A stretch of DNA of 64,000 bases from a virus. Shown here piece after piece: positions 1 through 46,623 of this stretch (position 1 is its first letter; each line of letters starts with the position of its first letter). Below the pieces are notes generated by a model that was not told the DNA's origin, searched no databases, and saw only the letters and a list, made by a program, of their open reading frames with translations. The DNA lies in IMG/VR virus record IMGVR_UViG_3300045988_027877, positions 32,001-96,000 of that record; one strand, written 5' to 3'. Made by a program: the position numbers and the translations under genes.

Positions 1-1
1 A

Positions 2-3000
2 GAAGGTATTATAGTAAGTCTAGAAGATGTAATATGGAAGTACACAGATGGAGCTATTAAGGAAAGTATATCATGTAAGATACAACAAAACACTGTAAAT
101 ACTCTTGATTTTGTAGTAGACCAAAGTAATAAAGAAGTTAAGATATTTGTTAATGGTGTATTGAATGTAGCTAGAGAGATTAAAGATAACTTCACTTGGA
201 GTACATCAAGTAAGATATATTTAGGATGTACTTACTAGAATGACAAACCTAGTAACTTCAGTGATGTAGAGTTCTATGAAATGAACTTGTTTAGATCTCC
301 TCTTAATGATAAACAGATAGTTATTAATGCACTTAATGCTAGAGTAAGAGCTACATTAACTAGTACAGGTTCTGTAGATTTTACAGAGTATAACAACTTA
401 AAGTTAAAGAACTTCTTTAGTATAACAGAGAATAGTAGTTCTTCAACTCTTTGGGATGACTCTACTGGTACATATGCTAAATTGAATTTTAACAGTCTTA
501 TTGGTGATGTCAATAGAAAACCACCTCTTCCAGTAGTATTAATAAACTGTTCCAATTCTGGGTTTACTAAAGCTGTGTATGAAGCTATTGGACCTAATTC
601 AACTATGTACAATGGTTGTACACTTAGTTACTTTGATCCAGACTCAACTAGCGGATCTGCTGTATCTACTACAGATGTATCTGTATAGATTCAAGGTACA
701 TCTTCTACTGGTTACAGAAGTAAGAACTTAGAGATTGCTTTCAATAAAATACTTACAGATGATGAAGGTAAATCTATTGGACCAGAGCTATTTCAACCAA
801 AAGCTAGTTGGATGCCTGAGAATCAATTCACATTGAAAGCTGACGTTGTAGATAGCGCTCATGCTAATAATGCTTCTATTGGTAAGTGGATTAATGACAA
901 TGCAGATGTACTATTTGATAAGACACCTCCAATGTAGGAATTGGAATCTAGACGTCCTGTGGATTCTATAACCCCTAGTGAAGTACATAATGAGGTAACT
1001 ATCAAACATACTTTGGAAGGTTTCCCTATCATACTACTTATACAATTCGATGGTACTAGTACTCAAGAGATGTTGGGTATATATTCTTTCAACTTAGGAC
1101 GTGCTGCTTACTACAACATGGGTATGAAGTTCTTAAAGAACTTTACTACTAAGATTAAGAATGTAACTGGAGAATATGTAGATCAACCATTGCCTGCTTT
1201 CATTACTAAGTATGAAGCATATAAAGTAAATGAGAACTTTGGTAGTATCAATCAATAGTAGATTTACTCATATGAATTTGGAGATAATGCTAACATTATT
1301 GAGACTCCAGAAGGTATACAACATACTGCTCTATTCATGCAGGATGACTTAACCGTATTATAGCATGTAGGAGAATTTAAATATAATGGAGCTACTCAAG
1401 ATGCTACTTCTGTAACTGACAACAATATATGGTAGAGACTGTAGTTACTGTTTACTACATTAGCCGGTATGACTGGTGAAGAGATAAGTAAATACAGATG
1501 GAACACTATAACTAAAGGGTATGAAAAAACAGGAGCTACATATCCTGCATAGCAATCCTGGTCTGCTCTTGCCGATGATCTTACTTTAAGACTAAGTATT
1601 AGAAATGCATATTCATACTTTATGATATGTGTAGTATTCGGTCTTGTGGACTCATTAGGAAAGAATATGGTGTTAAGATCATGGAATGTAGGAGGATCCA
1701 CTACAGATTAGAATATGAATAAGTGGTACCCATGTTTCTATGATATGGATACTGCAAATGGAGTAAGTAATACTGGTGAAGAAAATGTTGCTAAGACGGC
1801 ATATATAGACGGTTTCAGAAATGCAGATACTACTACGGGTGTGAACTCTCTTATAATCAAATAGAACGATCCTAATAACGGGTATGACGAATACTCAAGT
1901 AGATTGTGGGATGTTCTAAGAGATAGTAGATTCATAAGTACTGGAGTATATTCAGGAAGTGATTATAATGGATTATGGGATCTATGGAGAACCAATAGTT
2001 CATTATTAACCAGTTCTTCTATGTTCGTTGAAAACTACTTTAGTGCTTAGACAAAGAACTGTGGAGAACTATTATACAACTATGACTACCGAGTTAAGTA
2101 TCTTACGAAATATTAGAAAGATGAAGATAGCCCTGCGTCATATGCGAATGTGGAGTTCTTGCATGGAACTCGTAATGACTTTGTAAGAGACTGGTTGAAG
2201 AAGAGATTGACGTTTATGGACGGAGTATTCTTATTTGCTAATAATAATATTATCTATCCATACAATGAAAAAGGTTCTTTCAAGTGTGGTGGTGCTTAGA
2301 ATAACAACTCTAAGTTAACTATTAAAATGAATAGTCCTGCTATACTTACTGTGAATATAGGTAATGCAGCAGGTAGTGAAACTAGATATTACATAGAAGA
2401 GAATGTGGATACAGATATATATCTACCGTCTTTATCTTCATTTAATACTCAGATTACAGTAAACAATATGTCTGAGATAAGTAATATGAAAGGACTGGAT
2501 GAAATTAGATTCCAAGGTTTCATGACATCAATGTCGCTACCTAGTATGTCTGAAATAGACGTATAGAATACTAGTACCTTATCATCTAATCCTATTGACT
2601 TTGCTACTATATTTGTTAAGAAACAAGATGGTCAATCTGTATCTGATATTAGACATATAAATTTATCTAATACTAATTTCTGGTCTGGAAATAGTGGCGT
2701 TAACTCATTCCCAGTAGACGTATAGAATTATAATAAATTAAAGACTATTGATATATCTAATGGTTGTGTTACATCTTTAGCATTACCTAATGCAGCTCTA
2801 TCTACTCTTACTTTAACAAACTCTGCTATTGAAAGAGTAACTTTGGCAGACCAACCTTTTATAAGTAAAGTAGATTTTACAGGATGTAATAAATTATAGT
2901 CTGTAGAGATAAGTAACTGTAACTAGATAACAGAATTAGATTTACGTAATCTTAATGACCTAACAAGTATTAATGTTATCGGGTGTGCTAAGTTAACTAA

Positions 3001-6000
3001 GATATACGCTCCTAACTGTAACAAACTAGCCACATTTAATGTGTCTAATGCTAATGCTCTTAAGTCTGTAACATTATCAAACTGTAGTAATGCTAGTTTA
3101 ACAATAAGCTTAGTAGGTGCTCCTAACTTAGAAGAACTAAATCTAGACAACACAAATACTACAGATGTAATAGAATTTGCTCCTAACTTCAATAAGCTTA
3201 AGACACTTAATATATCTTCTAGTAACATTAATGCGTTTTAGTTTGGTAATGATCCTGTAGCTACTACAGCCAGTGGAGAAAGGGTATTAGACCTTAGTCC
3301 ATTTAACTTTACTAATCTATATATGTACTATAACAGCTCTAAATATGTTAAGTTTAAGAATAGTAAGACTAATCCTTTTGTGGTTAATAGTTCTACATTC
3401 AATAACTGTTCTGCATTGATTAGAGTATTTGGACACATTAAACTTACATCAGGTAGTGTATTCAGTACTTGTCCTAACTTCTTTATACATGATGTGTTAT
3501 CAGATGTTACTATTAAACCTACCAGGGGATAGTGGTATGGACCAGATACAGACACTGTTGAAGGTAAACAACAATGGAATAACAATCAAGGATTAGAGAC
3601 TAATATCTCAGTAGGTACTAATAATCTAAGTAATTGTTTTGTAGGAACTAAAGTAAACATATATGATGCTTATTATATGTTGAACCTGTGTGATAATGTA
3701 GTTAATATAAATTCTATGTTCCACTCTTGTTCTAATATAAGAACTGACTTTAGTAATCCATTAAGTAGAGATACTTTCAAGTATTGTGGTAATGTGACTA
3801 GTGCTTCTACTTTATTCTATGCTACTAGAATAACAGGACCTATGTATAGTCCTACTCATACTGGGGATACTATTACGGCATATAATGGATTATTAAGTCC
3901 ATTAAAGAAGTTGGTTTCTTGTGATAGTATGTTTAGAACTACAGCTGGTACTTTCTATATAGATGATTTATTCTTTGCATAGATAGGCAATAATCAATAT
4001 TTACAATTAGCGCATCTGTCTAATATGTTCAATGAAGGAGATAGTAATGTTATATTTGTAGATAATTGTAATGAATCATTAACATCAGCTAGTGTTGCAG
4101 AATAGCACAGAGCATATGCTAGAGCATCTAAGCTGTTGAGAAATCTTCCTAATCTAGATACTATAGGAAATATGTTTAATGGTTGTTGGTTTAACTTTGA
4201 TACAGAAAGTATCAATAATGTTACATACAGTCCATTATTTGCTTATAACAAAAAATTAAGAGTAGTTAGTTGGAGTTTCAGAAACATTAAAGCTAAAGGA
4301 TCATTAATCAATCTATTTGGTGGTAATTCAGAATTTGATAGTAGTAACTTATTCTCTAGATAGATAACCAAATTATTAGGATGTTTTTATATAACTTCTA
4401 ATGATGGAGATAAAGTGTATTTCCCTATACACAATAGTATGTTTAGATAGATTAAACTAACCCTATAGCATATAGGTCATACTGAAGATACTAATCAGAT
4501 ACCTGGTCAATCTAGTACGTGTTTCCATGGAGCAGGAATAAATAGAACATTTGTAAGAGAGTCAGATGAGATATATCCATACGATGTATTCAAAGGAGCT
4601 GTTAATCTAATATCTTGTCCTTGTTTCTTTGCTAACATGACTGTTCCTAATTCTAGTGGAGTGGTATATGAATTACCAGGTACGATATTTCAAGACTGTA
4701 CTAATCTTGTACAGATAACTGGATGTTTCAGAAACCAATCAATCAAATATAAATTAACAGGAAAAGGATTTACTAATTGTAAACTTACTAATGTAGCTTA
4801 TGCTTTCTATGAAGATGAAGGTAACTATTCCAAAGAAGGAGGAGTTCCCTATGGTCTGTTCTATATGGAAAGAGATATAGTAAGATCATCTAAAGGTTGG
4901 AGTCATACAGATGCATTAAGACTTAATATAGACGAAAACTTTGGTATTACTGATGATGGTCAACATGATCCAGATGCGGTACTTCCTAATGCTATAGAAT
5001 ATAGTGATAGTATTAAAGCTATTCGAAGTAGTATAACAGATATGCGTTATTGTTTAGCACGTTTCTAGAGTACTAATGCGGAAGGTTATACTAGAAAACA
5101 GGTAGAGTTGAATAGTGTAGCTGATGCAGGAGACTTAATAATATCTAATGAGAACTATAATGTATCTGAGTATATTGTTAACACTGCATATGATCCTAGA
5201 GATCAGATACCTAATCCTGCATATGATCCAAACAATCCTGGTTCTATTCCATAGTATATAGATAATCCTAATAAAGATATACGTAGAGTAATAAAGAATC
5301 CTGATTACAGTCCATATAAAAAGATATGGAATATTGATTTCTATGACGGAGTATATGGACTAGGAGATATAATTCAGAATAGTACTTTGTATGCTAATAT
5401 ACAGTCAGGAGCTATAACAGATGTTGATCCTAATATTCCAGATGAATTCTTTAATGAGGATGATATGAAGACTCCTACTAATCCTACTGGTAACTATAGA
5501 TTGGATAATATGAACTATATAGTACCATCTGATTTATTCAAATACTGTGTTAATAATACTAATACTAACATATCATATGTTCTTGTTAGTAGTGGTAGAA
5601 AAACTAATATAGGAGTTCAAAGATACAATTATGGTATATATGGTAGAATACCAAGCAGATTATTTAAACCATTAACAAATATATCTAGTTTGTCTAATGT
5701 ATTTGCATACTGTTACTGTATTAATCCATATACTTGGAATGATGAGAACAATAATGGATAGATGTTTCCGCCTGATATGTTATCTAACAATACTGCATTA
5801 AAAAGCGTTTCAGGACTGTTTAAAGGAATATATGTACCAGCTAAGGTTGTAATACCTTCTACTTTACTTAGTAAATGTTTAGCTCTTACTGATATATCCT
5901 ACTTGTTCTTTGATGCTACATTCCAAGGATCTGCAAATGATGTACAGCAATTGAGTGATAATACTTTCCAGTATAACTATATACTTCAGAATATATCATA

Positions 6001-6280
6001 CGCATTAGCTAGTACTAATTCATCTGGAGGATGGATGGGACAAGGTCCTAAGAAAATAGGTTCCAATTTGTTTACTTAGGCTAAACATAAAATACTTACT
6101 AATGTTACTGGTCTATTCTATGGAAACACTAGTACTACAGGTTCTGTACCAGAATTCTGGACATGGTTAAATACTCTTACTAATACTAATAAACAAAATG
6201 TATTCGCTTATATGAGTAAGAGTCTTATTACTAATAGTGCTAATATACCAGAACAATGGGCAACTAATATGAGAAATTGA
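2..6280 (+). CDS. Giant tail/receptor-binding protein (5' end outside window): LamG-like jelly roll, CotH-like kinase domain, long BspA-type leucine-rich-repeat region; requires TAG read as sense
   Basis: Ten ORF-track fragments (281-688, 941-1258, 2327-2566, 3041-3241, 3323-3532, 3677-3982, 4136-4363, 4637-5068, 5387-5761, 5762-6079) share one frame (start mod 3 = 2). Hand translation of all gaps shows only TAG interruptions (about 29). The first non-TAG stop is TGA 6278-6280. Motifs: KIYLGCTY.NDKPSNFSDVEFYEMNLF (LamG end); IQGTSSTGYRSKNLEIAF, LGKNMVLRSW and WYPCFYDMDTANG (CotH-like, ~690-2230); then many LRR units (e.g. NCSNASLTISLVGAPNLEELNLDNT and FxxCxxL repeats to ~6000). Confidence 0.75.
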
Positions 6281-6281
6281 T

Positions 6282-6467: not shown

Positions 6468-6693
6468 ATGGTTAAAAGAGAGTAATAGAATGAAGCACCT
6501 GAAGTATGCTATAGTACCAGGTGCTCTGTTCACCATACTATTCGTAGCTGGTCTAGCATCAGGTATGGAGTTTAAAGATAAAATGTATGGTGGTAAATGG
6601 GATTGGTTGGACTGGATAGCTACTATGATCGGTGGTACTATAGGTCAAGCTATACAGATAGGTTTAATATATTTAGTAATGAAATTGTTATGA
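6430..6693 (+). CDS. Putative holin (two hydrophobic helices); true start probably ATG 6457 or 6490
   Basis: ORF track 87 aa: ...MKHLKYAIVPGALFTILFVAGLASG...WIATMIGGTIGQAIQIGLIYLVMKLL, i.e. two TM-like segments. TGA stop 6691-6693 overlaps the endolysin ATG (ATGA). No in-frame TAG. Confidence 0.5.
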   Translation: MTLNLELQDMQIKWLKESNRMKHLKYAIVPGALFTILFVAGLASGMEFKDKMYGGKWDWLDWIATMIGGTIGQAIQIGLIYLVMKLL

Positions 6694-7091
6694 TATACTT
6701 TACTTTATAGGAGCTAACAAAGTCTAATACAGCTATCGCAAAGAAATTAGATAATACACCAGATGAATAGGCAATAAAGAATTTAAATACATTGGTAGAT
6801 AATGTATTAGATCCTTTACGTAAGTTGTATGGTAAGCCTATCATTGTTACATCTGGTTATCGTAGCCCTGAAGTTAATCGTAGTGTTAATGGAGCTACAT
6901 CTAGTCAACACGCATTAGGAGAAGCTGTAGATATTAGTGTAGGTAGCAAAGAAGAGAATAAAAAATTATTTAGTCTTATAAAGGACAACTTGCCTTTTGA
7001 TCAGCTTATAAATGAACATGACTATTCGTGGGTTCATGTGTCTTACAGAGAGGGAAGATTACGTAAATAGATTTTAAATATTGGTAAATAA
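6690..7091 (+). CDS. Endolysin, peptidase M15 family (zinc D-Ala-D-Ala carboxypeptidase / L-Ala-D-Glu peptidase-like)
   Basis: Translation with TAG as sense: MIYFTL(Q)ELTKSNTAIAKKLDNTPDE(Q)AIKNLNTLVDNVLDPLRKLYGKPIIVTSGYRSPEVNRSVNGATSSQHALGEAVDI...DYSWVHVSY. The SGYR...N..V.G...S.H..G.A.D ... H pattern is the M15 metal-binding signature. In-frame TAGs at 6708, 6768 and 7068; TAA at 7089-7091. Confidence 0.8.
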
Positions 7092-9034
7092 TGAAAACAC
7101 TTTTATATAATCCAATATTCATTAATCCTTAGGCATACTATGTATTTCCAAGGTTAACTAGGTATCTGCAGCCAGACAATGAGTCTACTTCAGAACCAGC
7201 TAACTATATAGGTACAATTGAAGTAAAGGTAATAGCATATGGAGATACTACTTTAAAAAGAACCTATACTAATACAGATTCTATAGACCTAAGTGAATTT
7301 AAGAATACGTGGATACGTATTAGTCTATTCACTAAAGTAGGTTCATGTGTCTTAGGAGAGTGGAAGATTGGCAATATGGAATCAGATCTTCCTTATATAG
7401 ATCCAGAAGTATTAGCTTCTCTTAAAGCTGTAGTTATAGTTGGTAATAAGACTAATAATGATTCTGATAGAGCTATAGTCAAGAACTTGGTGGACCCTGA
7501 CAATCCCTTTGTGATTAGCAACGCAGCTTATGATAAAATGTCCAGTTATGGAGGTTATGAGTTTGCTAAGTTTGATAATACTTTAGATTGGTATAATACA
7601 GAAGGCAATGATAGTGTTGAAGTTGTGTCGAGAAATGGGCATAGTATTACTCTAAAAAGATTAACTGGTCCTAATTTTTGGTATTTCCAAAACAGCACAT
7701 TTAGAGGGCTTATATCGAATGTTATTCCATTTAAAGTTAATAGTAATAAGAATATAACTGTCGTTTGGGACGTACACGGTCTTAGCATTTCAGAAGGAAA
7801 AGATAAAAGTGTTAGAGTACAAGAACTTGTATTAAATCCTAATGAAGACAATTATACTAACTTAAAAACACTAAACGAAGAAGAACTAGCTCAAATAGAT
7901 ATTAGTACAAACTCTTTGTATTACTTATTATGGTTTGATTTGTCTACTCTTGCAGTAGATGAAGAAGTAACTATCGAAATGCTTCCCCTGTTCGAAGGTG
8001 CCTTCGTCACCGATGGAATCAACGACCTGATTACTTCCACCAAGACCGTACAGGAGATGCTGGGAGGAAGTAATGAGATTACGGTGGTGAGTATGATTCA
8101 TCAGATAAAAGAATCTATATATAATAATCGTGCTTATACTAATTATATAAGTGGTACTTATGGACATATTAGGAATCAAGTAGCTGACACTAAAACAGGT
8201 ATTTATGGTTATACCGTTACTGATTTAAACAACAGTTCTACAAATATTAAAGGAAGTGTTATTAATAATATATTAGGTGATAAGAACGACTATCTATATG
8301 ATGCAAATACTAATGTTGAGTTAGGTAATGCTAAATATTCAGTACAGAATTATATTAAAAGTGATGGTACAGTAAGTAATATTGGTTCACAACTTGCTTG
8401 GTATTGGACAATCATCGCCAACAAGGTACTGACTACCGACCAAATCAACCAGGTAATCGCCTACTTCAACTTGGATAGAACTCTTAAACCTGATATACTG
8501 TGTAATACTATCAAGCAGGGAATCACCAACGAGAACCACGCAGAGTTTGGCGACAGGCTGATTGACTTTTCCGGTAACGGTAGAGATATTCAGCTGAACA
8601 ATATTGCATGGAAGGGGGATTCAGGTATAGGAAAGTATGAGGTTGATTTCGCATCATTAAATTATAATAATACAACATCAGTATTTACAGCTACCTATAA
8701 ATCATGCTCAATTAGCAAGATTATAAAAGATGGTGTTGGAAATATTTTCTATAATTGGGGACAAACTTTAGCAGCCATTAATTCCACAAAAATACAAGTG
8801 ATCGGATTAGATGAAATTGGAGCTATATTAGAGTTTACGTATTTAGATGAATCCGGTAATAGCACAACTAAACAGTATTCTACCGATGGTATTTATGATT
8901 TACCTGCTTCGGCTGCATATCAAGGTGATTCTCACAATACCAATTTTAGATTTTCTATACGAGGATATATTGGAGACTGTGATATAACCATCACCCAGAT
9001 TCCCTCCCACGCAGGTGCTCTCTGCCTTGACTGA
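7091..9034 (+). CDS. Tail-fibre/receptor-binding protein with LamG-type modules; ends at an in-frame TGA inside a LamG domain
   Basis: ATG 7091 overlaps the upstream TAA. One TAG at 7130, then a 552-aa uninterrupted ORF (7376-9034). LamG-type strands: FEGAFVTDGINDLITS, WYWTIIANKVLTTDQINQVIAYFNL, LIDFSGNGRDIQLNNIAWKGDSG, HAGALCLD-stop. Confidence 0.7.
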
Positions 9035-9052
9035 GTAAATGACTTTGGTAAG

Positions 9053-10978
9053 GTGACAGGGATGCCGATTTACAAGGATTATACTTTCATTATAGACTAT
9101 GAACGTATAAGTTATGCTTCATCTGAAAGATGGGTAGCTGGTGTTGTATCTAAATCTCATGTAGCTAATCAAGGAGCTTTTATTTTAATGACAGCTAATA
9201 CAACAGTTGAGCCCTACAAACAAGCATATTCTTTTGGAGGAGTTACTTCATTTAATAGAGATGATTTTACAAGAGCTTTAGTATATCAAAGTAAGTATAA
9301 ATGTGGAGATGTCGATTTAACAGTAGGCGAAGGAGTTGATAGTAATACTCTTTGGCTAGGAACATTTAGAGATAATGACCAGAGGTTCTTCAACGGAGCT
9401 ATCTACTCTCTCATGTCCTTCCCTTATAGCATGTCCAAATTCTTGATAGAGCGTCAGTTGAAGAAGCATAAGCTGGGTACGCTGTATCCGGATATGGTGG
9501 AGTTCAGACCTGTTATAAAGAGTAACGTTTTATTAGATGCTAAGCCAACATTCGTTTTTCGTGGTACTAGTACTTATCTAAATGCAGGAGATTATGTTCC
9601 TGAAAATAGTCAAATATGGGTAAGTATTAAGATGAATAACATTGCCGATAGAATAACTAAGTTTACTGTTAATGGCAAAACTATTGATATTCCTGAAAAT
9701 GCTTATAGTGAAGTCACATTGCAATATGGTTTCCCTTTTGTAATAGATAAGTCTCCACAGAAGATTACTATGACTATCGAACAGGATGAAAACTACGTCC
9801 AATGGAATCCCACTGTGGAAAGTAATGTTGAGTATGCTTCTATTAATTATTTGCTTAGAATACCCGGTCAAGGCACAGTTACTCCTGTATCAGGTCAATA
9901 TTACCCAATATTATCTACTGATACCTCTCTAGTAATATATGTTGCTACAAAAGGAGTGGATGAAGTTGCTAATCTAACTATCAATGGACAAGAGCCTACC
10001 AGTAGTTCTATTCATGTTGATGGTAGATTTAAGTTTGAATTTCCTTTCAACAACTCCCCTCAAAAGATAAATATCACAATTGACGAGTACATCAGATACG
10101 AGGATATTGTGCAGCCGTATCCAAGTTTCGTTAAGTTAGAAAACCTAGATAGAACTTATACTTATACTTGGGGAGATAAGCTAAAAGTAGGAGATACTAT
10201 CAGGTATAATTCATCTGTAAACCTATTAGAAGGAGCTTATACTTTAAAGGGTCAATTAGAGTGCAACGGTGTATATGTATATGATAATAATCAATATATT
10301 ACTGTTGCTAAAGAGATGATATTTGCTTGGACAAATAGCCCTATTTGGTCAATTGATGATAATGAACCTAAATGTATTCTATCTCCTAGACTACTACGTA
10401 TTCCAAATTCTAGCTATAAGATATTGGGTTATATTCCTGATATATCAGGTCACGGTAATCATGGTAAGATAAACAATTCTGCTTATGCGGAAGGAAGTGG
10501 AGTTAATGAAGATGGTTCATACCAATTTGATGGCGTAGACGACTTTGTTACTATTCCTACTATTGTTGGTGGTAAGCAGGTATTGATGAAGGTGAATTGG
10601 CAAAGTGATGCTGCAAAAGCTATACTATATGACCAAAGAGGTTATCCTAATGAGTTTGCTATCTATAATGCTGATGTGGACAATAATAATCCTGTTTTTG
10701 CTTATCAGGCAAGAAATAATGGGCAAACATATATTGATGGTATTTTGAATAAAAATATCAAAGCATCTGAATTGAGGGCTATTACTCATAATATAACTAT
10801 TACAAATGAGTTAAGTTCAGGAGGAAATAATACCTATCCTATTATTGGTTCAAGCAAGGCGAATGCTAACTTTGTTAATATGGCATTATATGACTTCATG
10901 CTCTTCGATGAAATCTCAACAGATGACAAGATTTTAGAGCTGAATAAGTATGTAGGGATAGAAGGCAATACAGAATGA
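9053..10978 (+). CDS. Tail-fibre protein with N- and C-terminal LamG (concanavalin-like) domains; same frame as upstream ORF
   Basis: 641-aa ORF without any TAG; GTG 9053 or ATG 9062 start. N-terminus KDYTFIIDYE...LWLGTFRDNDQRFFNGAIYSLMSFPYSMSKFLIERQL (LamG end). C-terminus ISGHGNHGKINNSAY...YQFDGVDDFVTIP...MALYDFMLFDEISTDDKILEL (complete LamG). Confidence 0.7.
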   Translation: MTGMPIYKDYTFIIDYERISYASSERWVAGVVSKSHVANQGAFILMTANTTVEPYKQAYSFGGVTSFNRDDFTRALVYQSKYKCGDVDLTVGEGVDSNTLWLGTFRDNDQRFFNGAIYSLMSFPYSMSKFLIERQLKKHKLGTLYPDMVEFRPVIKSNVLLDAKPTFVFRGTSTYLNAGDYVPENSQIWVSIKMNNIADRITKFTVNGKTIDIPENAYSEVTLQYGFPFVIDKSPQKITMTIEQDENYVQWNPTVESNVEYASINYLLRIPGQGTVTPVSGQYYPILSTDTSLVIYVATKGVDEVANLTINGQEPTSSSIHVDGRFKFEFPFNNSPQKINITIDEYIRYEDIVQPYPSFVKLENLDRTYTYTWGDKLKVGDTIRYNSSVNLLEGAYTLKGQLECNGVYVYDNNQYITVAKEMIFAWTNSPIWSIDDNEPKCILSPRLLRIPNSSYKILGYIPDISGHGNHGKINNSAYAEGSGVNEDGSYQFDGVDDFVTIPTIVGGKQVLMKVNWQSDAAKAILYDQRGYPNEFAIYNADVDNNNPVFAYQARNNGQTYIDGILNKNIKASELRAITHNITITNELSSGGNNTYPIIGSSKANANFVNMALYDFMLFDEISTDDKILELNKYVGIEGNTE

Positions 10979-11827: not shown

Positions 11828-11828
11828 T

Positions 11829-13070: not shown

Positions 13071-13106
13071 TTTAATTAAAAATATAGATAGGTTGTTCCT
13101 CATCAT

Positions 13107-13199
13107 TAAGCAGTAATGCTAGTAATAGCACGAATGCTAGGTTACTCAATGTTAATTCTAACAATGAGCTTAGCAATGCTAATGCTAATGTCAGTACAC
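13107..13199 (+). repeat. DGR template repeat (TR)
   Basis: Non-coding copy 36 nt after the target stop. Rich in AAT/AGY codons in the VR frame (LSSNASNSTNARLLNVNSNNELSNANANVST). 33 adenines, 28 of them changed in VR. Both repeats are followed by ...CCGTAA. Confidence 0.9.
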
Positions 13200-13328
13200 T
13201 GAATCCGTAATTAAACAAATAAAGAAATTAAGAGACTGTAGAGGGAGACCTTACCCCTTGGTAAAAGATAACATACTAATTAACTGTGTTAGTAACTTTT
13301 TTCGTGAAAACTCGGTAATGGATTACAG

Positions 13329-15075: not shown

Positions 15076-15076
15076 C

Positions 15077-19199: not shown

Positions 19200-19639
19200 A
19201 GAAATCTTATACAATAAGCGACTTCTATGAGTTCTACTTATCTTATATCGAAAGGGAAACTGTATATGATGTTGATTACAAAACATACAGACAAATTGTT
19301 GAAGATTACTTTAAGTATATCGTAGAAGAGATAATGGAAAATAGTAGAGAATTCAAACTACCATGTAGACTTGGAAATCTAAGTATAGTAAAACGATAGC
19401 CTAAGAACTTTGATAACAAGAGCTTAAGAATAGATTATCACGAAAGTAAGATATACGGGAAGCCGATTTATTTTACTAACGAACATTCTAATTTTTTCAA
19501 ATTCAGATTTTTGTGGTCTAAGAAAGATTGTCTGTTAACGAACAAGACAAAATACTAGTTTATAGCGACTCGTGCCAATAAGAGAAGGCTAGCACAAATA
19601 ATAAAAAATAGAGAGCATGACTACGTGGAGATTAAGTGA
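19196..19639 (+). CDS. Small basic hypothetical protein
   Basis: ATG 19196, two in-frame TAGs (19397, ~19556), TGA 19637-19639. Confidence 0.45.
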
Positions 19640-27101: not shown

Positions 27102-27102
27102 T

Positions 27103-28902: not shown

Positions 28903-28903
28903 T

Positions 28904-34900: not shown

Positions 34901-37900
34901 GTACATTCTCCTAGAGAAAGACAGATCGTATACGATGATTATGTAAAACATCATCCTGAATATAAGAATGCTTCTATAAATGAAGTAGAGGAAGCTATGG
35001 CAGAAGACTTCCGTAGCTGGGCTATTGTTCAGAATGCTAAGTGGTATAATCTTGGTTACTAGACTATTAAGCTATTTAGAGCCATAAAAGACTTTGTTAA
35101 GTCTATGTTCAATATATCTGATAGTCTCTATACTACTATATATAAAGGTATAAACAAGGGAAGATATTCTCAATATGAACTGAACTCTGTATCTATGGAG
35201 GAATTCCATAAGGCATTTACAGACAATGGTACATTCTTCTCTATACCGGGAGTACCTCAAGACAGATTGAAGAACATGCCTTCTATCATTAATCCAGATG
35301 TATTTTATAATGTATTAGACTCACTTACTAGTACATTGTTATCTGTGTTTAATGTTAGACAAGCATCTGATATATCTAAGTTAACAGAGAATCTAGATTA
35401 TATTCCTTCTATTATAGAGGGAAATATGATGGCTGGTCTTACTCCTGAAGAGAATGAACAACTTATTGAAGAAGTACTTGATAACTGGGATATCTTCAGA
35501 AAAGAAATGGCAGAGCAACTATCTACTCTGAATATCAAAGCTGAGGAAGTAGAGGTAGATAAAAATGGTGATACAGAAGGACAGAATAATAATGAGAGAT
35601 ATGATAGAGTTGCTTTTGAATTCTCAAAGAAGCTCAATATGTCTTTCAACGCTAAGCTATTCTTTTACTCTATTCCTAAAATGGAATATGATAAGAATAA
35701 AGAACTAGTGCCTGTAGTAGATCCTATCTTTGGACTCAATATGACTGAATCCTTTGATGTGTCTTGGAATAAAATAATGGAAAACCTATGGGATATCGAA
35801 AGATGGGAAGATCTAGAATCTAGATGTTTAAGACTTGGTAATGCCGATCCTTTCTTTAAATCTCTATATAACTACATTAGTGGAGATAATAAACCAGATG
35901 AAAACACTTGTACTCAAATACTTACTACTATTAAAAGTGCTAAAAACGAGATGACTTCTATAGAATTTAAGGAAGCGTTCGAAAAAGCAAACAGTAGAAT
36001 ACAAGATGAGGATTTAGTATTGGATGTAAAAACATCAATGAGAGCTAAAGCTGGTAAATGGCGAATCCTGGATTCCTCTTTACTTAGATTATAGAATAAA
36101 TATCCTAGACAATGGGGTAAACTATTCTATGTGTCCGGTATGATAGACAAGAGTAATCCTAATAAGTTTGAAATAGACTAGGACAAACTTGAGGATTTGA
36201 ATGTCGACTTTATGCTAATAAAAGAGAAGATAGACGAAATAGCTGCTCCATTTACTTCTAAGAGACCCAAAGCCATTACATTCACAGAAGATGATATCCG
36301 CAAGGCTAGTGTTACAGCAAAAGAGGAATTAGTGAACTGGTTGAACGGAATAGGTATAGACGTAGATATTAAGTCTATAGACTACTTATTATACGGTATG
36401 AAGTCAATGAATCCTAAACTACCTACTATTGAAGGATTCGATAAAATGTACACTTTACTTAATGACTCTAGTAAAGGAAATATTCGTAACCAGATATTAG
36501 GCAACTTAGATGCATTATCTAAGGGAGAAACAAAACTATTAAAGCTAAATAATCCATTCCCGGTAACAGAAGACAGTTTTATATAGAAACTGGCTATTGC
36601 TCATGGTAAGTCTCACCCAAATCCATCAGAATTTAGTGTAACTGGTCCTAATAATACTACAGTATACCCAATAACCTAGAATAACTATATGTCTGATAGA
36701 ATTAGATGGTTTAATACAGATCCTTCAGAAGTATCAAAAACTAGGAAGGCTGTGTATAATCGTCACTCTATACTGTTGCAGGCACTAGAAGACGGATCTA
36801 AATTAAGTTTAAGTACCTTTATTGCAGTTCGTAACGAAGATAATAGAACTAGTAGAGATTACTTCTAGATATCTCCAGTAGAGGACTATATATCTAAAAT
36901 GGTGCTTGCTCATAACGATAGAATACTATTACCTACTATGGCAGATAAGAAGACATGGTATTCTATTAGTGGAGTTAAACTGTTCCACGATATGTTGTCT
37001 AAATCTAGATTAACTGAAAGACAGACAGATACGGGTATACAGGTTCAATATGTTGATGATCAGATGTATCATTATTCTGATGATACACTACAGACATTTG
37101 CAGATTATTTCCTTGATGAATTTAATGCTATAGAACAGTATTACGCAGATAAATCACAAGTAGAATAGAATCCTAATCTTGCTATTGATAATTACCACGG
37201 TAAAATAAAGAATGGTAAGATGGATAATATGGGTAATGGAGGGTATTTCAGATACTTCTCTTCCATCAGAATGAGAGGAGAAGATGGAAACTATAAATAC
37301 ATGCCTTTGAACCAGATGATTTATGCTTGGTCAAAATTTGATTATGATAATAATCAAAATCAAATGCCAACCAGACTTAAACAACTTAAAAATACTTTGT
37401 TTAGTAATAGAGAAGTATTATTTGATATGATAAATGCAACTCTACAAGATAAGGTATAGGAAGAACTTGATTTCTTAGTGGATAAAGGTATAATCAAAAA
37501 GTATGCCAATGGTGAATATGAGAACTTGTTAATACCATCTAACATGCTAGACGATTATCATGAACGTTCTCGTTCACTTCCTAATGGAGATTCTTCTAAG
37601 AGAAGTAAGCCTGCTGCACTTTATTCATTAATTGCAAACCATGTAGCTAACTAGATGGTTTCTATTATAGAAGTAGAGAAAGCATTTGTTGGGGATCCAG
37701 CTTACTATAAATGGAAACGCGATAAGAAACAACCATGGATAATAGTAGAAAGATCTGTAGACAAAATTAAACGTCTTGGTTCTGTATTGTCTACTGGAGA
37801 TAACCTTAGAACTTATTGGGGAGACGGAGATCCTAGAAATAACTCTAAGTTTACAGTATTACATATGAGTGATAATGAGGTAGGATCTATCAAGTTTGAC

Positions 37901-40900
37901 GAGTACAAAAAGATGTTTACCGCTGCTGAAGTGATGAAACATATTCAAAGAACTAACCCAAATATAGACCAGAAACGACTGGTTAATATGGTTAGTAAAG
38001 AGAATATTAACAACACTATGAAAACTCTTAATGCTAAAGTAAAGAAAGCTATAGAGGATTCAGTAGCTAGACAGATTGCTGCATATGGTATTGATGAAAA
38101 CGGTAGGGGTAGGATAAACCAAGCCGATGCTGCTGTGTACATTAGACCTGCATTGTATAAGAGAATTGTCCAAGCAGTAGGAGAATGGTCACCAGAAGTA
38201 GAAAGAGCGTTTGATCTATTAGAGAGTCCTGATGAATCATGGTTGTCAGATCCTAAACTATACGCACAAGCTATAGAGACTCTTATCAAACCATTAAAGA
38301 TGGTATACTTTGGTAATCATGAACTCACTAAGTTAGGATTGAATGTACCGGTATTTGACAAGATGGCTATCTTCCCGATGTTCAGAGTGATGGCAAAAGC
38401 AGATAACTATCATCTGTACAATCGTATGAACAATGAAGAACTAGGTGCTATTGATATGCTTACTTTTGAATCTGCGGTTAAAGTAGGTGGTAGAAAGAAA
38501 TTCAAACCATATAAAGATGCATAGAACAGTAGATTTAACTTAGAAGATCTGAATAAACCGTCCACTTCTATAGTAAATGGTGAGACTAACTTCGAAGGTT
38601 TAGATTCTGACAATTCTAAATTGCCTACGTATATTCAAGATTTGCGTAATCTTAGATTACAGATGAATACAGATCCACACGAACATACTGATAGATCGTT
38701 AGGTACTCAGTTTGCTAAAGTAGCACTAAGTAACTTGGTCAAGAGTAGACCGTATGGATTAAATAAAGGAGTAGAATACACTGGTAGATAGATTATAGAT
38801 AATGTATTTAACTCTATTAATAGGTTATCAGATCTAGGAGCACAGAAGATATACGATGAATTTACTGATGATGGTACGTTATCTACTAGAAAGTTATCTA
38901 ACTTCTTAATACGTCAAGCTAAAGATAGTGGACTATCCAGAGATGTGGTGTCTTCTTTCGAAATTGATGAATCCACAGGTCAAATGCGTGTTCCTCTGTC
39001 AGCATAGAGTAATAGAAGATTTATCGAAAGTAGGATTATATCACAAGTAGGAAAGAGAGCTATTGATATCAATACTCCGGGTGGTTCTGCTATCCAACAC
39101 GCGTTCTTTGGATTTAAGAATACAACTATAACAGATCAAGAATTTGTAGGTAGAGCATTCAATGATGGTAAAGATCTGAGTCCTTTGAATGAAGACGGTA
39201 GTATGGACTGTATGCTTAGCACCAATTTCTTCAGACATGTAGTACCTGCTTCAGTAAGAAAACAAGGTTATACAGCTATCAGAGAATGGTTAATAGAGAA
39301 GAATATAATTGGTCAGAATGCTAAGCCGTATGCATTAGGTTATCGTATTCCAACGCAGGGTTTATCATCTACAGCATCTCTTAAAGTAACAGATGTACTT
39401 CCAGAGTCTATGGGTGATGTTATTGTAGTTCCTAATGACTTTACTGCAATGACTGGTTCTGACTTTGATATTGACAAGTTGTATATAGTTACTGGTTACT
39501 ATGATAAAGATGGTAATTATTTAGAATGTAATTGGGATGATATAGATAGTAACTCTGAACAACAATTAGTGAATGGATTAATTGATATGTATCGTATTGC
39601 TATATCTGACGATACTAACATAGATCAAACTAAAGCTCCTCTTGATAACCTTACTGAAAAGGTAAAATCAAACATTCTTCCACTAGTAATGGGTACTGCC
39701 AAAAATGAAGCTAAACCAATGTATGAATTACTTCCTTCTTATCAGTTGTTTAAAAAGTTTGAATATACCGGTGGTAAAGATGGTATTGCTCCATTTGCTC
39801 TAGCTTCTACTAATCATGCGCTTACTCAAGCACTGAATCTTAGAATGGATTTGGGTGAAGTAGCCGATTTATACGACTTAGGTAATATAAATGATATAAC
39901 TTCTCAGGATGGTGAAAGAATACTTGACTGGCTATCTGCCATGATTAACGCTCACGTGGACGTTGCTAAAGATCCTTACATCATTAACTTGAATGTTAAC
40001 TCTGTTACTTATAGTATGACTGAGTTCTTGCTTAGAACAGGTAAGGGAGAAGCTACATTCTACTTCTTATCACAGCCTATTTTGAAAGATTTTGCTAACA
40101 TGATTATCAAACTGAATGGTCAATATGGTGTAGATCCTCAAGACGTTTCTTATAGCCAGTTAATAGATGATACGTTATCTGGTTTAAAGAAACAGTATAT
40201 GAGAGAGTTTGCCAACTTTGTTGACTCACAATCTGATGAAAATATTAAAAAGAAATTAAATCAAGAATGGGCAGGTCTATTAGATTTTGAAAGAAGCCCA
40301 GATACTCCTAGACGAGCAGTAGATGTAGAGTTACTTAAAAAAGCACTTACTTCTAATATAGAGGGAAATAGAGATTTAAACTTCTATCTACAACAAGTAT
40401 TAGTTGCTACAGCCTATCAAGACATGTTACCATATGCAGAAAGACTAACAAAATTAGTTAGATTATCGCAAATTGATACTAAGAAATATGGTAATACTTT
40501 AGCTCAGTAGGCTAACTATAGTAAATCAGTATTTGATTTTATCAGGAATGATGGTGAATTATTCTATCAAACTGATGATAAAGGTGTGAAAATAGAAGAT
40601 GAAAATCAAAACGCTCTGCTTAACTATTACTCTAATAGCTTCTTGATGAAGAAATTAAAAAATGCGGTAGATATTCCTAGATTTATATTACATCAAGATT
40701 TTATTCAAGCTACTGATATGTATGGTGGTTTGTTTAATAATATGATAAACTCTATGATAGGAGAACGAAGTGGAATAAACAAACAATTAGCCATGAAGTT
40801 GGATTCCATTGTAGATAGTGTAATTAGAGCTAGAATTGCTAACAGTACTCCAGCTATGCATTTAGAGTAGGGAGAACTAAAGGAAATGGTAATGGGTAAT

Positions 40901-42298
40901 AGAACTGTTCCTAAGAGATTACATCAACTTAAGTATGCCATATATAGAAATATAAATGGTAGATACGATAACTTGCTTAATGGAGATGGATCAATAAGTA
41001 ATGCTTTCTTAAATTACCTAATTCCAACTCTAGCTACAGACAGTACAGAAGGTGGTATTGATGCAATGTCTTTACTTAATAGTTCTATGGCTAACAGTTC
41101 TAATTTTGAGAATAGATTAATTGCATACTTTAGTGACTTGATGTCCAGTGAAGATGCAGCTGTAAGACAATTTGCAAATAGATTAGCATTGTATGCTTAC
41201 TATACATCTTATGACAATAAGGCTCCAAATACGTTCTCACATTTGATATCTAGTCAGTTTAGAGTTGATTCAGGTTATGCAGATAATATAAGACAAGCTA
41301 TAGGTGATATGAATACTGGACAATGGTTAGGAAATGTGTTTAATGAAACTATAGACGAACCTACGTTAAGCTCATATCCTTCTATCGCATTAAATATTGC
41401 TAGAAACAATGCTTAGGATTCTGAAGTAGTTAAGAATGTAGTTAAACCTAAATCCAATAGATATAATAGTAAGTCGTTTATATATGCTCCATCCCCGTGG
41501 ACCGATGGTACAGGTACATACCTTATGTCATTCAGTACTAAACCTAGAAAAGACGAAAGAGATTTCTTATCTATTGATTATCCTGTTTACGGAAAGAGAA
41601 ATACTGTATTATATGTCAAAATAGGTAGACTTGAAGTATACGACAAGGAGAAAGGTAAAAAACTAGGATAGGCTGGACAGACAATATATGCTGCTGTACC
41701 TAGATTAGGAATACAGTCCGGATCAAATACAGTAAATGAGTATTATAAAGACGCTTATTCTCTATCTGACTTTGATGAAAATAATATAAGTGTGTTATCC
41801 TACAAGTATTTAAATGACTTCTTTAATGATCAATCTAAGTATAAGATGTGGGTTAAAGGAGTAGACAGCAAAAATATAGATATATCACTTATACCAAGTC
41901 AATATTTCAACGAACAGTTCAATGCTCATGGATTAGACAGATTAACAGAAGATGTAGATCTATCAGAGAATTCTGCTGATAACATTATCAGTCAAGAAGT
42001 AAATGACGAGAAGCCTACTCAACAGAGTGAGAAACCTAAATCTAAAGCAATGGAAACTAAAGAGTTAGATAGAGATATAGCAGCAGAAGCAGGTTTGTTA
42101 GATAAAGGTAATTTAATGACTAAAGTAAACCAACAATTACTAATGACAGAAGCAATGATGGAAGCAGTTCCTTATGAAGATCCTAATGCTGGAGTAGAAT
42201 CATCTGGTGAAGATATATCAGACATGTTTACTTCTGAAGATGATCTTAATGAGGATAATTTCTCAGACGATGCTTATAATAACTGTAAAGGTAAATAA
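28904..42298 (+). CDS. Giant 4,464-codon ORF: virion-packaged multisubunit-like RNA polymerase fused with zincin-like and acidic domains
   Basis: Eighteen ORF-track fragments from 29519 to 42298 all have start mod 3 = 2. I translated every gap and found only TAG (about 32) between ATG 28904 and TAA 42296-42298. Contains HEAWH (34871-34885) and GSDFDIDK (DFDID at 39461-39475). Confidence 0.7.
34871..34885 (+). other. HExxH zinc-metallopeptidase-like motif (HEAWH) inside the giant ORF
   Basis: cat gaa gct tgg cat, in context GKGIQYHEAWHYINLL. Confidence 0.5.
39461..39475 (+). other. DFDID motif (DxDxD catalytic metal-binding loop of crAss-type virion RNAP)
   Basis: gac ttt gat att gac, in context VVPNDFTAMTGSDFDIDKLYIVTGYYD. 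Confidence 0.6.
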
Positions 42299-42300
42299 TT

Positions 42301-45300
42301 ATGGCAAAAGGAATATGCCCAAACTTAAGTGATCCGCAGATTAAAGCGGAGTTTGATGAGATGGTAGCTGCTCTTGGAGAAAAACAAGCATATGCTATCT
42401 GGGACATGAATAATGGTTATAGTTTAGATAAGGCTCCGAATGGGGAGCCTTCTGTACTATTCGCTAGACTATTAGAATATAATAATGATAATAGACAAGC
42501 TGCAATACAGGATAAAGCTAAAATATACACCAATTCATTTATAGAGAGATATGGTAATTGGATAGAAGGAGAGAAGTCTGACAAATTCTCTTATGTAGAA
42601 GGAGAACCTATTGTTAGTAAGGAATCCTTAAACATATTTGATAAACAAGACTCTCCACTTCAGCAACAATCTATGTCTCAAATAGATGAAGCTATGAAGA
42701 AATTTAGAGCTGAACGATATGATTTTGATAAGACATTAGATACGTTAAGACAACTAATAACTAATGCTGTACAAGCACGTATTAAGTCTATTTAGAATCG
42801 TAAGATAGCTAACAAGACTGCTTTATTAGTTCCTTTAGAGCAATAGCTATCTGCCCTCAAGAATCCGAATATCGACTCATTACAGACCATAGTATACTGT
42901 TTATCGGATATAAAAAGAACTATGACTCGTCCAGTTAATGCCATACTTACTGCTCAAAAGAATCTTAGAGAAGGTAGAGATAGTGGATTTAGTAATCTAG
43001 CACTAATACAACTTCAATAGGATTATTTTGGTATGTATAATAACGTGCTAGAGGAAATTGCTAGAAATGTATTTGATTCTGACATTTATAAAGACATACT
43101 TGGAGCATAGAGTTTCGATCAGATGAAGACTATGATATCCAATATGCGTACTCAATTTGCAGCAGCTAGGCAAGGACTTATCGAACTTACTACAGACTTA
43201 GCATAGAAGACTATGTTAAAGTATGGTATCAAGGATGAACAAAGCAGAACAGAACTGGAATAGTATGTAGGAGAAGATCTTATTACTACTGAAAATGACG
43301 TTAGTTCTCTAATGAGATGGATAGGGTCTGGAGATAAAATGAACGATAAGGCTGCTAGAGTTATGTTCGATATGATAGCAAACACTAATAATAAGACTCG
43401 TTTCGCTACTCATAAGTTCGGTAACAAGTTGTTACGTCTATAGAAACAAATATCTCTAGGAGATCAAATGAGACTATTTGAATATGATTCAGATGGTAAA
43501 AAAACTGGTTACTTTATTAGAGACAGAAAGTATGGAGAGTTTCTTAATAATCTTGAGAAAGAACGCAAACGCTTAAAAACTAAGTATAATGTTCCGGAAG
43601 GATAGAACATGCCTTTAGAGAAGGAAGCTAGAACTGCTTTCAATAAGGAGATGAACGATTGGTTAAGTAAGCATTGCGAACGTAGATATACTAAGAAATA
43701 TTATGATGCATTTAACTCACTTAGTCAAGAAGCCAGAGATGCACGAGACGCAATACAATTTAAGATATACAAACTACTAGATGATGTAAGAGATAGTAGA
43801 GGAAAAGTACATCTTGAGAATCTAGATGCTAAACAATGGGCACAATATGAGAACTATAATATACAGAAGAAGCAGTTGATGTCCATGTATTATGAAGATG
43901 GTACTCCTAAGACTGATTTAGATAAGTAGATAGCAGAGGAACTTACTGAATTGAATAAAATGCTTCATGAAGGAATGCATTATGTTACCAATGAAGAGAA
44001 GTTCAACGAAGCTAAACGCGAAGCAAAGGAAAATCTTACTCCAGAACAGTATGAAGCATGGAAAAAGAGATATACCAGAGTATAGATTAGTGATGAATTC
44101 TATAAACAACTATCTTAGATAGAGAAGAAAGAATACGGGGATAGGTATATTGAGTTAAAGAAGATAAGGGAAGAGCTTACTAAACCGTATAGAAATGAGT
44201 ATACTGGAGGTATTGATGTACAGTATATGTCATCTACTCTGCTGCATACTCTAAATAGTCTGGATAGAGAAATGCGTAAAGAGAGGAAGAACGCTCGTAA
44301 ATCCAAATCTAAGAAAGAAGAAGAGTCTATAGAAGGACTTAAATTCGAAGATATTGCAGAATCAGTTCCTACTGAACAATATAAAAGAGATAAGTAGGCA
44401 GCTATAAACAGAGGTATAGAGTTCTATGAACTATGGGAGAATCAGCACCATATCAAGTACTATATAGGTGAAAAAGAAGTAATAGTTCCAAAATGGTACT
44501 ATACTAAGATAGTTCCAAAGGACGAAAGACTTATAAATTATGAAGCACCTACTAGAGAGTTTAGTGAAATAGATCCTAATTCAGAGTATTTCAATAGTAA
44601 ATTCGATGTAAATATTGACGAGTACTATCAACCTAAAGAATCTCTTTACAAGAATAAAGAGTATGATAATTTATTTAAAGTAAAGAAGGATAAGAACGGT
44701 AATGAAGTAGCTACTAGAAATATACCTCTGTGGAACTTATATAAAGAGTTACTCAATGGTATGGAAACATCTAATGATAAACTTACTTTCTTGACCAGAA
44801 ATAATCCATATAAGTTACCACAAATGAGTGGTAGTATGTATCAATATGCTAAAGGAGATGGTATTATAAAAGGATTCTTACAATATACCAGACAAGGTAT
44901 AGTAAAAGACGTAGATGATGTAGGTTACGTTGATGCTCCTACAAGTAGACCAGATGGATCTGCTTAGAGAATGATTCCTACTTATTATATAAACAAGTTA
45001 GACGATCCTAATAAGATTACAAATGACTTAGTTGGTTCTGTTATAGCTTACTTCAAGATGGCTGAAAACTTCAAGAATAAGACAGAGATACAACCAGACC
45101 TAGAAGTAATAAAGATGTAGATGGCTAATCGTGCATATACTGGAAAACCTATAGGATTAGATGCTCTCAAAAGAAAGATATTTAAGCAGAGTGATAAGAA
45201 AGTAGGTGCTGATACTAATACTTATAAGTTTATAAGTAGGTTTATGGATATGCAATTATATGGAGAAGAATCTAAATCTATACTTAAGAAATTTGCAGAG

Positions 45301-46623
45301 GATAGTAAGATAGGTAAATTCTTTGGATTAGCAGGTAAAGAAGTAAACTTCTCTAAAGTAATCCACAGTATTAAGAACTATGGTCAATTACTTGGATTAG
45401 GTCTCAACTTAGCTGTTGGAGCTACAGGTATGGCTACAGCTTTTTTGGCTCAGCTAGGTATGGCCGCTAATGGTAGATATTTCGATTTTTCTTCTTTTTC
45501 CAAGGCATATTTCAATATGGTAAGTAACTTGTTTGGTATAGTATAGTATGCAAAAGATACTACCACTAACAACAAGTATGTGGCATTGATGCAGAGATTC
45601 GAAATAGGCACAGAATTCTAGAATGCTTTTAGAAACTCTAATAGAATTGGTATAATAAACACGATAAGTAGGAACTGGGCGTTCGGAATTTTTTCATTTT
45701 CTGATTTTGTAATCAAAGGTACTATACTAAATTCGATTATGAATAACTATAGATACTACAATGGAAGATTCTATAATAGTCAATAGTTCAATTAGTTATT
45801 CTCTAACAAAGAAGATGCAAAAAATATCTGGAGAACTCTATAGAGTACTTATGATATAATTGAAATAGAAAATGGAAATATTGTAATTAGAGATAAAGCA
45901 TAGGCTAAAGCTTTTGCTGAAGTATAGAATGAAATTAGTAATAGTGCTAGAGCTCTTTCTGCTACAGCTGATGGACAGTTAACAGAAGAATAGAAAGCAC
46001 AATTTGCTTCTAATGCTTTTGGTTCACTTATAATGATGTTCCGTAACTATATACCAAATATTATTAGTGAGAGAATCACTATGAAAAAATAGTATGATTA
46101 TAATTTAGGTATGGAACGTGAAGCTTTATTAAGAACTATAGGTAGAGTAGTACCTATGTTAATAAAAGATTGGAATAGTCGTAAACAACTAGATGCATCT
46201 GATATAGGGAATATTAGACAGTTTGGTTACGAAATGACTATGATTGCTCTATTATCATTTGTAGTTAAACCTCTATTAGTTGAAGCTGCTGATGATGATC
46301 GAGATAATTGGGTTAAGAATTTCTTAGCTCTTCTAGTAACTAGAACTGGATTTGAGTACGGTAATCAATATAATCCTCTAGACTTACTTAATACTATTAC
46401 TTCAGTAAGTTCTATATTTGATATAATGAATCCGTTCACTAATCTTTTATCACTTAGCGAAATGTGGGAAGTTGCTATTAATAATAAGAAAATTAAGTAT
46501 GGAGCCTATAAAGGTGATACTAAATTAGAAAGATGGTTATGGAAAATGACTCCATTTAAGAATGTTAAAGAGATTCAAGATCCGGCAATCAAACGAAAGT
46601 ATTACGAACAATTATACAAATAA
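42301..46623 (+). CDS. Large (1,440-codon) hypothetical virion protein, last gene of the late block
   Basis: Fragments 42301-42795, 43609-43929, 44761-44967, 45121-45546 and 46111-46623 are in one frame. About 23 in-frame TAGs and no TAA/TGA before TAA 46621-46623. Hydrophobic segment LGLGLNLAVGATGMATAFLAQLGMAANG. Confidence 0.55.

Follow-up and report, generated by a model that had tools for sequence, protein, structure and literature searches.

Probable TAG-to-glutamine recoding of the late gene block in a Buchavirus crAss-like phage: a further case of a known phenomenon

The 64-kb stretch of viral DNA analysed here (G+C 34%; positions 32,001 to 96,000 of IMG/VR virus record IMGVR_UViG_3300045988_027877; hereafter the window) consists of two convergent gene blocks: a plus-strand late block with structural, lysis and virion-cargo genes (1-46623), in which TAG serves as a sense codon, and a minus-strand early block of 19 genes, among them those for an exonuclease, ATPase, primase, helicase and DNA polymerase (46676-63958). 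The best explanation, which we hold to be highly probable, is that the late block is a module in genetic code 15, in which UAG would stand for glutamine (Gln) by way of a phage tRNA with anticodon CUA, tRNA(CUA); recoding may then act as a translational gate. TAG recoding here is already known: both the phenomenon and the phage lineage are in the literature, and the finding is a correct re-discovery. TAG-to-Gln reassignment in the late genes of delta-group crAss-like phages was described by Yutin et al. 2021 (PMC7886860), and the nearest relative of the window, the phage genome cr52_1, belongs to the genome family described there. Earlier publications cover the phage lineage, the reassignment and its restriction to late genes, as well as the suppressor tRNA and the preference of lysis genes for TAG, and the nearest RefSeq record is annotated accordingly. 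The window is thus a further clean example of a phage genome split between two genetic codes and brings no new principle; possibly useful increments are its TAG-free tail-fibre modules and the backup stops behind early TAG terminators.

TAG as a sense codon in the late block

Counts given here refer to refined gene models with start codons assigned, in which only TAA and TGA were treated as stops. From 2 to 46623, the plus strand carries 24 genes with 15,257 codons, of which 154 are in-frame TAGs; TAA and TGA never occur internally. These genes terminate in TAA (14 genes) or TGA (10 genes), never in TAG. An initial annotation, made from the sequence alone, had claimed about 155 in-frame TAGs and no in-frame TAA or TGA ahead of the terminal stop, and both claims stand. 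Naive first-ATG models yield 159 TAGs; the surplus is spurious and lies in the mis-called N-terminus of 14972-15691, which overlaps the preceding gene, the true start being near 15077 as in the cr52_1 orthologue. When the same DNA is read off-frame, it contains 53 TAA, 36 TAG and 31 TGA per 1000 codons. Because off-frame TAA and TGA are that dense, a 4464-codon frame without either cannot be due to chance. Frames delimited by TAA or TGA on the plus strand contain up to 32 TAGs: 29 are found in 2-6280, 19 in 21322-25476, 32 in 28898-42298 and 23 in 42295-46623.

Coding density responds to the reassignment of TAG and of no other stop codon. Open reading frames (ORFs) of at least 100 amino acids (aa) cover 52.4% of 1-46623 under the standard code (code 11); reading TAG as sense raises this to 97.4%, whereas control reassignments of TGA and TAA give 53.3% and 53.4%. 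The comparison of codes 15 and 11 proposed in the initial annotation therefore ends with a near doubling of coding density under code 15. Code 11 shreds the 46-kb module, and its annotation needs code 15.

Protein domains continue across the TAG positions. Pfam searches of the late proteins were made with X placed at every TAG, and Peptidase_M15_3, RVT_1 and a GIY-YIG domain with a NUMOD-like domain were all recovered across TAG positions, while CrAss_Ring_2 (1-210 of 210) and CrAss_Ring_1 (1-271 of 272) were matched end to end. Earlier assignments of M15 endolysin, reverse transcriptase and GIY-YIG domains running through TAGs are thereby confirmed; that of a CotH-like domain is not, with no Pfam match at E<=0.01 in 2-6280 or 42301-46623 and none in the scans of other late genes, the 4464-aa protein lying outside the scan. 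Gene junctions fit the same picture. All ten junctions quoted in the initial annotation bear an ATG that overlaps the prior stop or follows it by at most 2 nucleotides (nt): ATGA overlaps occur at 6690, 11297, 19196, 20429, 21334 and 25473, a TAATG overlap at 7091, and an ATG 1-2 nt after TAA at 27103, 28904 and 42301. TGA terminates 10 of 24 late genes versus 1 of 19 early genes, and ATGA start/stop overlaps account for at least 5 of the 10 late TGA stops at the junctions checked. Release factor 2 (RF2) reads TAA and TGA.

The same data bear on the explanation that the standard code applies and that the genes are truly fragmented, be it as pseudogenes, through assembly or sequencing errors, or as short ORFs. 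Code 11 does give 39 ORFs of at least 100 aa in 1-46623, the longest up to 642 aa, and two long genes are uninterrupted. Against this, all 154 interruptions are TAG and none is TAA or TGA, although off-frame TAA is more frequent and TGA similarly frequent; the frame continues unchanged across every TAG; full-length Pfam profiles extend across TAGs; the pattern is kept in 74 relatives at differing TAG positions; and relatives have Gln codons in place of TAG. The TAG-only interruptions, the kept frame and the conserved pattern refute fragmentation, which we consider practically impossible.

Phage identity and lineage

By sequence comparison, the window makes up some two thirds of the genome of a crAss-like gut phage in the genus Buchavirus (Crassvirales, Suoliviridae). 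The nearest relative, cr52_1 (NC_055888.1; 103,665 bp), is a metagenomic genome assigned to Crassvirales, Suoliviridae, Loutivirinae, Buchavirus copri. Nucleotide identity to cr52_1 is 96.6% across 96% of the query for window positions 46000-64000 and 88.9% across 81% of the query for 6000-29000, with order and orientation kept; in cr52_1 coordinates, the window runs from about 13.7 kb (position 1) to about 78.2 kb (position 64000). ENA/Logan contigs that encode a protein-identical DNA polymerase are 99.2-99.6% identical to the window, which marks the phage as a common species; among the IMG/VR contigs found, identity to the window did not exceed about 96%. Typical crAss tail proteins are present (CrAss_Ring_1 at 1.8e-114 and CrAss_Ring_2 at 7.7e-79 in Pfam), and crAss_MUZ domains are recorded on homologues of 21334-25476. 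The crAss-like affiliation suggested by the initial annotation is therefore well founded, with 89-97% nucleotide identity and synteny to a Buchavirus genome besides the ring and muzzle proteins.

Gene order and the convergent late/early layout of the window are shared with cr52_1 and its sister species cr109_1, cr56_1, cr60_1 and cr113_1. GC skew and AT skew flip sign exactly at the convergent late/early junction (~46600), with the cumulative skew maximum at about 46 kb. In the RefSeq record of cr52_1, late genes are already annotated as continuous coding sequences through TAG, and a tRNA(CUA), annotated as tRNA-Gln, precedes the gene for the terminase large subunit (TerL) in a region that lies beyond the window. 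TAG is also TAG in cr52_1 at 111 of the window's aligned TAGs, and roughly one in four aligned TAG positions is not shared by the two, mostly with CAG or CAA in one genome.

The amino acid at TAG

A tally of residues opposite TAG at the protein level was dropped as circular because the 5.8-billion-protein database used stores recoded phage proteins with Q at TAG, as was checked on the DNA of two entries (P0001 and P0093). At muzzle position 1099, for example, all 120 homologues have Q. Databases that translate TAG as Q are unusable as proof of a Gln assignment, and the comparison was made at the codon level instead. When window TAGs were aligned with four Buchavirus genomes, 33-111 of them faced another TAG in each genome; the codons that differ are CAA or CAG in 48-62% of cases, and none is TAA or TGA. 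Reverse comparison of the relatives' TAGs with the window matches this picture. CAA is as common as CAG opposite TAG in these genomes; since CAA is two substitutions away from TAG, the Gln signal is not one of mutational proximity.

The muzzle gene (21334-25476) was compared at the codon level across 80 IMG/VR loci, which represent 79 distinct sequences. In 74 of the 80 loci, down to 35% aa identity, the gene has 7-25 in-frame TAGs at shifting positions and no TAA or TGA: recoding is conserved and is not decay. The remaining six loci (33% identity) are TAG-free and represent standard-code relatives. Muzzle positions 48 and 1099 are occupied only by TAG, CAA or CAG across the 79 distinct homologues, and positions 27, 48, 1099 and 1220 have CAA or CAG in the six TAG-free genomes. 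In TAG-containing muzzle columns, Gln is 5.5-fold enriched and is followed by K and E at 1.7-fold each. When 12 late genes were aligned with six standard-code loci, Gln held the majority at 18 of the 55 TAG positions that could be aligned, ahead of N (7), K (5), S (5) and E (4); the background Gln frequency is 2.6-3.9%. The initial annotation had held that homologues ending at these TAGs, an unchanged coding density or random residues opposite TAG would tell against recoding; homologues have no stops at the TAGs, density is raised and the residues are non-random. Its proposal that Gln is inserted is likewise borne out by the codon-level comparison, standard-code relatives included.

Together these comparisons indicate that TAG in the late block stands for glutamine. 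It is highly improbable that TAG is a sense codon for another residue (pyrrolysine, Lys, Glu, Tyr, Leu, Ser or Trp). Such a reading could draw on the name 'tRNA-Pyl', which ARAGORN gives to all CUA tRNAs, on the mild enrichment of K and E in TAG columns, and on variable positions at which TAG aligns with N, S, K, T and E and is not Gln-specific. The ARAGORN label rests on the anticodon alone, however, and residues of this kind at variable positions are as expected for surface polar sites. Conserved muzzle columns 48 and 1099 admit only TAG and Gln codons, no other residue is in the majority at more than 7 of the 55 positions where Gln is at 18, and the parity of CAA and CAG excludes mutational proximity. 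Pyrrolysine in particular is rejected: the aligned residues are Gln, and the complete cr52_1 annotation has no pyl genes. In addition, Gln at TAG has been seen in peptides of two crAss-like phages (PMC9523058).

The putative suppressor tRNA

In the complete relative cr52_1, positions 93287-93362 encode a tRNA with anticodon CUA that is annotated as tRNA-Gln and lies 14 nt upstream of TerL. This site maps about 15 kb past the end of the window. The 12 plus-strand genes upstream of the tRNA in cr52_1 contain one TAG in all, and immediately downstream TerL contains 11 TAGs and the portal gene 10; in the nearest relatives, in-frame TAG use begins exactly at tRNA(CUA). Of 60 related TerL loci, 44, among them those of the window's closest IMG/VR contigs, have a tRNA(CUA) on the TerL strand no more than 1.5 kb upstream. 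The suppressor tRNA put forward in the initial annotation is thus present in cr52_1 and in these 44 relatives. From this strong prior we infer that the window's own genome carries it as well. Release factor and aminoacyl-tRNA synthetase genes are absent from the cr52_1 annotation, and none was seen in the window.

The early block and the confinement of recoding

The early genes are compatible with the standard code. Their 4,567 codons include no internal TAG, whereas the late-block frequency of 10.1 per 1000 would predict about 46, and the statement in the initial annotation that minus-strand ORFs are uninterrupted in the standard code is correct for all 19 genes, though three of them end in TAG. 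Early stops are 15 TAA, 3 TAG and 1 TGA. Each of the TAG-terminated minus-strand genes has an in-frame TAA or TGA close behind: 10 codons on in 57246-57908 (interval 57216-57248), 1 codon on in 52906-53868 (52903-52908) and 5 codons on in 49817-50782 (49802-49819). The helicase gene ends in TAG TAA TAA, and this is conserved within the species; the backup-stop distances of 1, 5 and 10 codons are statistically unremarkable. Because the backup stops are so close, early proteins are nearly unchanged under either code.

This near-identity of the proteins would also suit a phage that uses code 15 throughout, without an early/late split, the lack of TAG on the minus strand being due to chance or mutation, and RefSeq does read through a few minus-strand TAGs of cr52_1 outside the window region. 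Such uniformity is nevertheless scarcely credible in view of the deficit of about 46 TAGs, an early Gln content that is normal (3.2%) and encoded by CAA and CAG only, the use of TAG as first stop in three early genes and in 0 of 24 late genes, and the onset of TAG use exactly at the tRNA in cr52_1. A late module in code 15 beside a standard-code early module accounts for these observations.

A proposed role of recoding as a translational gate

The following sequence of events is proposed. In the early phase, the replication module would be translated by the unmodified host apparatus, which is possible because it has no internal TAG. Late tail, muzzle, cargo, lysis, diversity-generating retroelement (DGR) and homing-endonuclease genes would be written in genetic code 15, with only UAA and UGA causing termination. 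Their decoder would be a phage-encoded amber-suppressor tRNA with anticodon CUA, situated in front of the terminase gene and presumably charged with Gln by the host glutaminyl-tRNA synthetase (GlnRS). As this tRNA accumulates, it may out-compete release factor 1 (RF1) at UAG, upon which late proteins could be completed. Recoding would thus be a translational gate on structural and especially on lysis genes. It is thought to time lysis and to guard late genes from premature expression. Codon usage in the window has a lysis bias of this kind: TAG makes up 60% of Gln-type codons in the M15 endolysin gene and 54% in a spanin-like gene versus 23% in the late block overall. A comparable competition with RF1 for UAG is known from E. 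coli supE/glnV44, where a tRNA-Gln bears the anticodon CUA. That suppressor is a host mutation of partial efficiency, whereas here the tRNA would be phage-encoded and would serve 154 codons in essential genes.

Several observations weigh against this proposal. The gate is uneven, with 6 of the 24 late genes, including a 638-aa gene at 9062-10978, lacking any TAG, and a 647-aa gene at 7091-9034 having a single one; the claim in the initial annotation that every long plus-strand gene is broken by TAG therefore applies to most genes and fails for these six. The major capsid (major head protein) gene of cr52_1 likewise holds just one TAG. The tRNA(CUA) has U1-G72 and A73, which we take to be a partial match to the identity set of E. 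coli GlnRS. To these points may be added the variable alignment positions mentioned above, and the timing role of recoding is itself a hypothesis. As for the decoder, ARAGORN detected no tRNA in the 64-kb window, in agreement with the initial annotation, which could fold no canonical tRNA(CUA) there; 16 of the 60 related TerL loci have no tRNA(CUA) within 1.5 kb; and recoding and detectable suppressors agree imperfectly in Crassvirales, some recoded members lacking a detectable suppressor (PMC7886860).

The last three points could favour read-through that depends on the host, with a host amber suppressor, a near-cognate tRNA-Gln or weak RF1 in place of a phage tRNA(CUA). We consider this very unlikely. 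The window excludes the region in which relatives keep the tRNA, every closest contig checked has a tRNA(CUA), and 154 TAGs, 32 of them in one gene, would need highly efficient suppression, for which near-cognate decoding appears implausible. A phage-encoded tRNA(CUA) remains the preferred decoder.

The window has no essential difference from published crAss-like code-15 phages (PMC7886860, 10.1101/2021.08.26.457843, PMC9523058), apart from the fact that Gln is assigned here by sequence comparison and in two crAss-like phages also by peptides. In those phages, as here, recoding is limited to the late structural/lysis module, replication genes use the standard code and lysis genes favour TAG. 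They carry a suppressor tRNA, as does the window's relative cr52_1; a genome size of about 100-105 kb is common to them and the cr52_1 lineage. Borges et al. 2021/2022 proposed that recoding gates late and lysis expression (10.1101/2021.08.26.457843). Similar gating was proposed for Lak, Jade, Agate, Garnet and other gut phages, which combine a suppressor tRNA with recoded late/lysis genes (10.1101/2021.08.26.457843). Unlike the window, several phages of these types reassign TGA to Trp, and several encode release factors or aminoacyl-tRNA synthetases beside the tRNA, unlike the cr52_1 annotation.

Gene content of the late block

All genes of the late block described here lie on the plus strand. 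The block begins with the 3' part of a gene for a giant leucine-rich repeat (LRR)/receptor-binding ('internalin-like') protein (2-6280; 29 TAGs), whose cr52_1 orthologue is gp11. Lysis functions are represented by the endolysin with a Peptidase_M15_3 domain (6690-7091; 3 TAGs) and by a lysis-regulator/spanin-like membrane protein (15077-15691; 7 TAGs in 204 codons). The highest TAG density occurs in the gene for a 188-aa late protein (17844-18410), in which 8 TAGs make up 50% of Gln-type codons. Tail ring protein 2 (CrAss_Ring_2; 18543-19199) and tail ring protein 1 (CrAss_Ring_1; 20414-21337), the two full-length profile matches, have 4 TAGs each. They are followed by the muzzle protein crAss_MUZ (21334-25476; 1380 aa, 18 TAGs), whose gene with its 79 homologues served for the codon-level test, two virion proteins of 542 and 599 aa (25473-28902; 6 and 5 TAGs), a giant virion protein of 4464 aa (28904-42298; 32 TAGs) and a virion protein of 1440 aa (42301-46623; 23 TAGs), which is the last recoded gene.

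A complete DGR occupies 11829-14354. Its target is an Mtd-like tail protein gene (11829-13070; 1 TAG) with the variable repeat (VR) at its end, in the part encoding the C-terminus (12956-13054); the template repeat (TR) is at 13105-13203, and the two differ only at template adenines. An Rfam RT-17 RNA (13247-13335) lies just upstream of the gene for the reverse transcriptase (RVT_1; 13329-14354). The pair of repeats was found with a custom scan that permits mismatches only at template adenines; a general repeat search and blastn found no DGR repeats. With 4 in-frame TAGs in its gene, the reverse transcriptase could be made only once TAG is suppressed.

Two tail-fibre-like genes at 7091-10978 are nearly free of TAG, the only one being codon 14 of the first gene, with none in the 638 codons of the second. 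This region, especially 7985-9520 and 9418-10602, shares segments of 88-95% nucleotide identity with DAC16 (gp162) and crAss002 (gp22), both of which are cultured standard-code Bacteroides phages; protein identity to cr52_1 is just 40-54%. This suggests that the tail-fibre (receptor-binding) modules were recently imported from standard-code phages, and it hints at Bacteroides as the host. The GIY-YIG/NUMOD homing endonuclease gene (19617-20432; 3 TAGs) is patchily distributed in sister phages (L004, L005, L006): cr60_1 lacks it at this site, and cr109_1 has a second copy beyond ring protein 1.

Non-coding elements in the early block

A tRNA-like RNA was found on the minus strand at 56470-56530, about 20 nt 5' of the DNA polymerase start, where the Rfam tRNA model matches 56471-56529 (59 nt, 35.4 bits). 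It has acceptor, D and T arms, and 4 nt replace the 18-nt anticodon arm. As a suppressor it was rejected for having no anticodon arm. The element is identical in cr52_1 (~70785-70845) and occurs at the same site in cr113_1, cr53_1 and cr114_1 and in 71 of 78 IMG/VR loci searched (for example L093 8923-8980, L094 7973-8044, L095 9410-9491 and, in L100-L179, ~1060-1183). In an alignment fitted to the model, its three helices are 97.4% paired versus 28-47% in slid controls, and 14 of 16 helix pairs have compensatory changes. The central region is hypervariable among relatives, from 4 nt to about 65 nt. ARAGORN treats the element inconsistently, either missing it or calling it His(atg), Met or '???', and leaves the window copy uncalled; one RefSeq record annotates it as tRNA-His. 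It is likely to be a real, selected structure. We give a slim chance to the idea that it is active in phage takeover of translation, possibly in the code switch, and is not a decayed tRNA gene. For example, it might decoy or titrate a host factor that processes or binds tRNAs, or it might be a signal for RNase P-dependent processing by which expression is timed. A link to recoding is pure speculation; if true, the element would represent a new class of recoding-associated non-coding RNA in phages.

In cr52_1, a permuted transfer-messenger RNA (tmRNA) is called by both ARAGORN and RefSeq at 81171-81551 (L002 31171-31551, minus strand), with the tag peptide GNTSYVTDYTRLVA. It is kept as a candidate; permuted tmRNA calls are often false positives.

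The early block also includes a region of about 2.2 kb (59935-62100) with no ORF longer than 71 aa and a slightly raised G+C content (38%). Hidden coding was rejected: each of the six frames contains TAA, TAG and TGA, and 3-base periodicity is missing from the substitutions. The region has no Rfam match and no repeats, and consensus folding gave scattered small hairpins only; the column-shuffle control is not a meaningful null here, and no structure is claimed. A long non-coding RNA, an origin and a regulatory region are candidates for its nature. Its sequence is 66-99% identical in 55 distinct relatives and includes nearly invariant blocks, such as that at 61305-61334.

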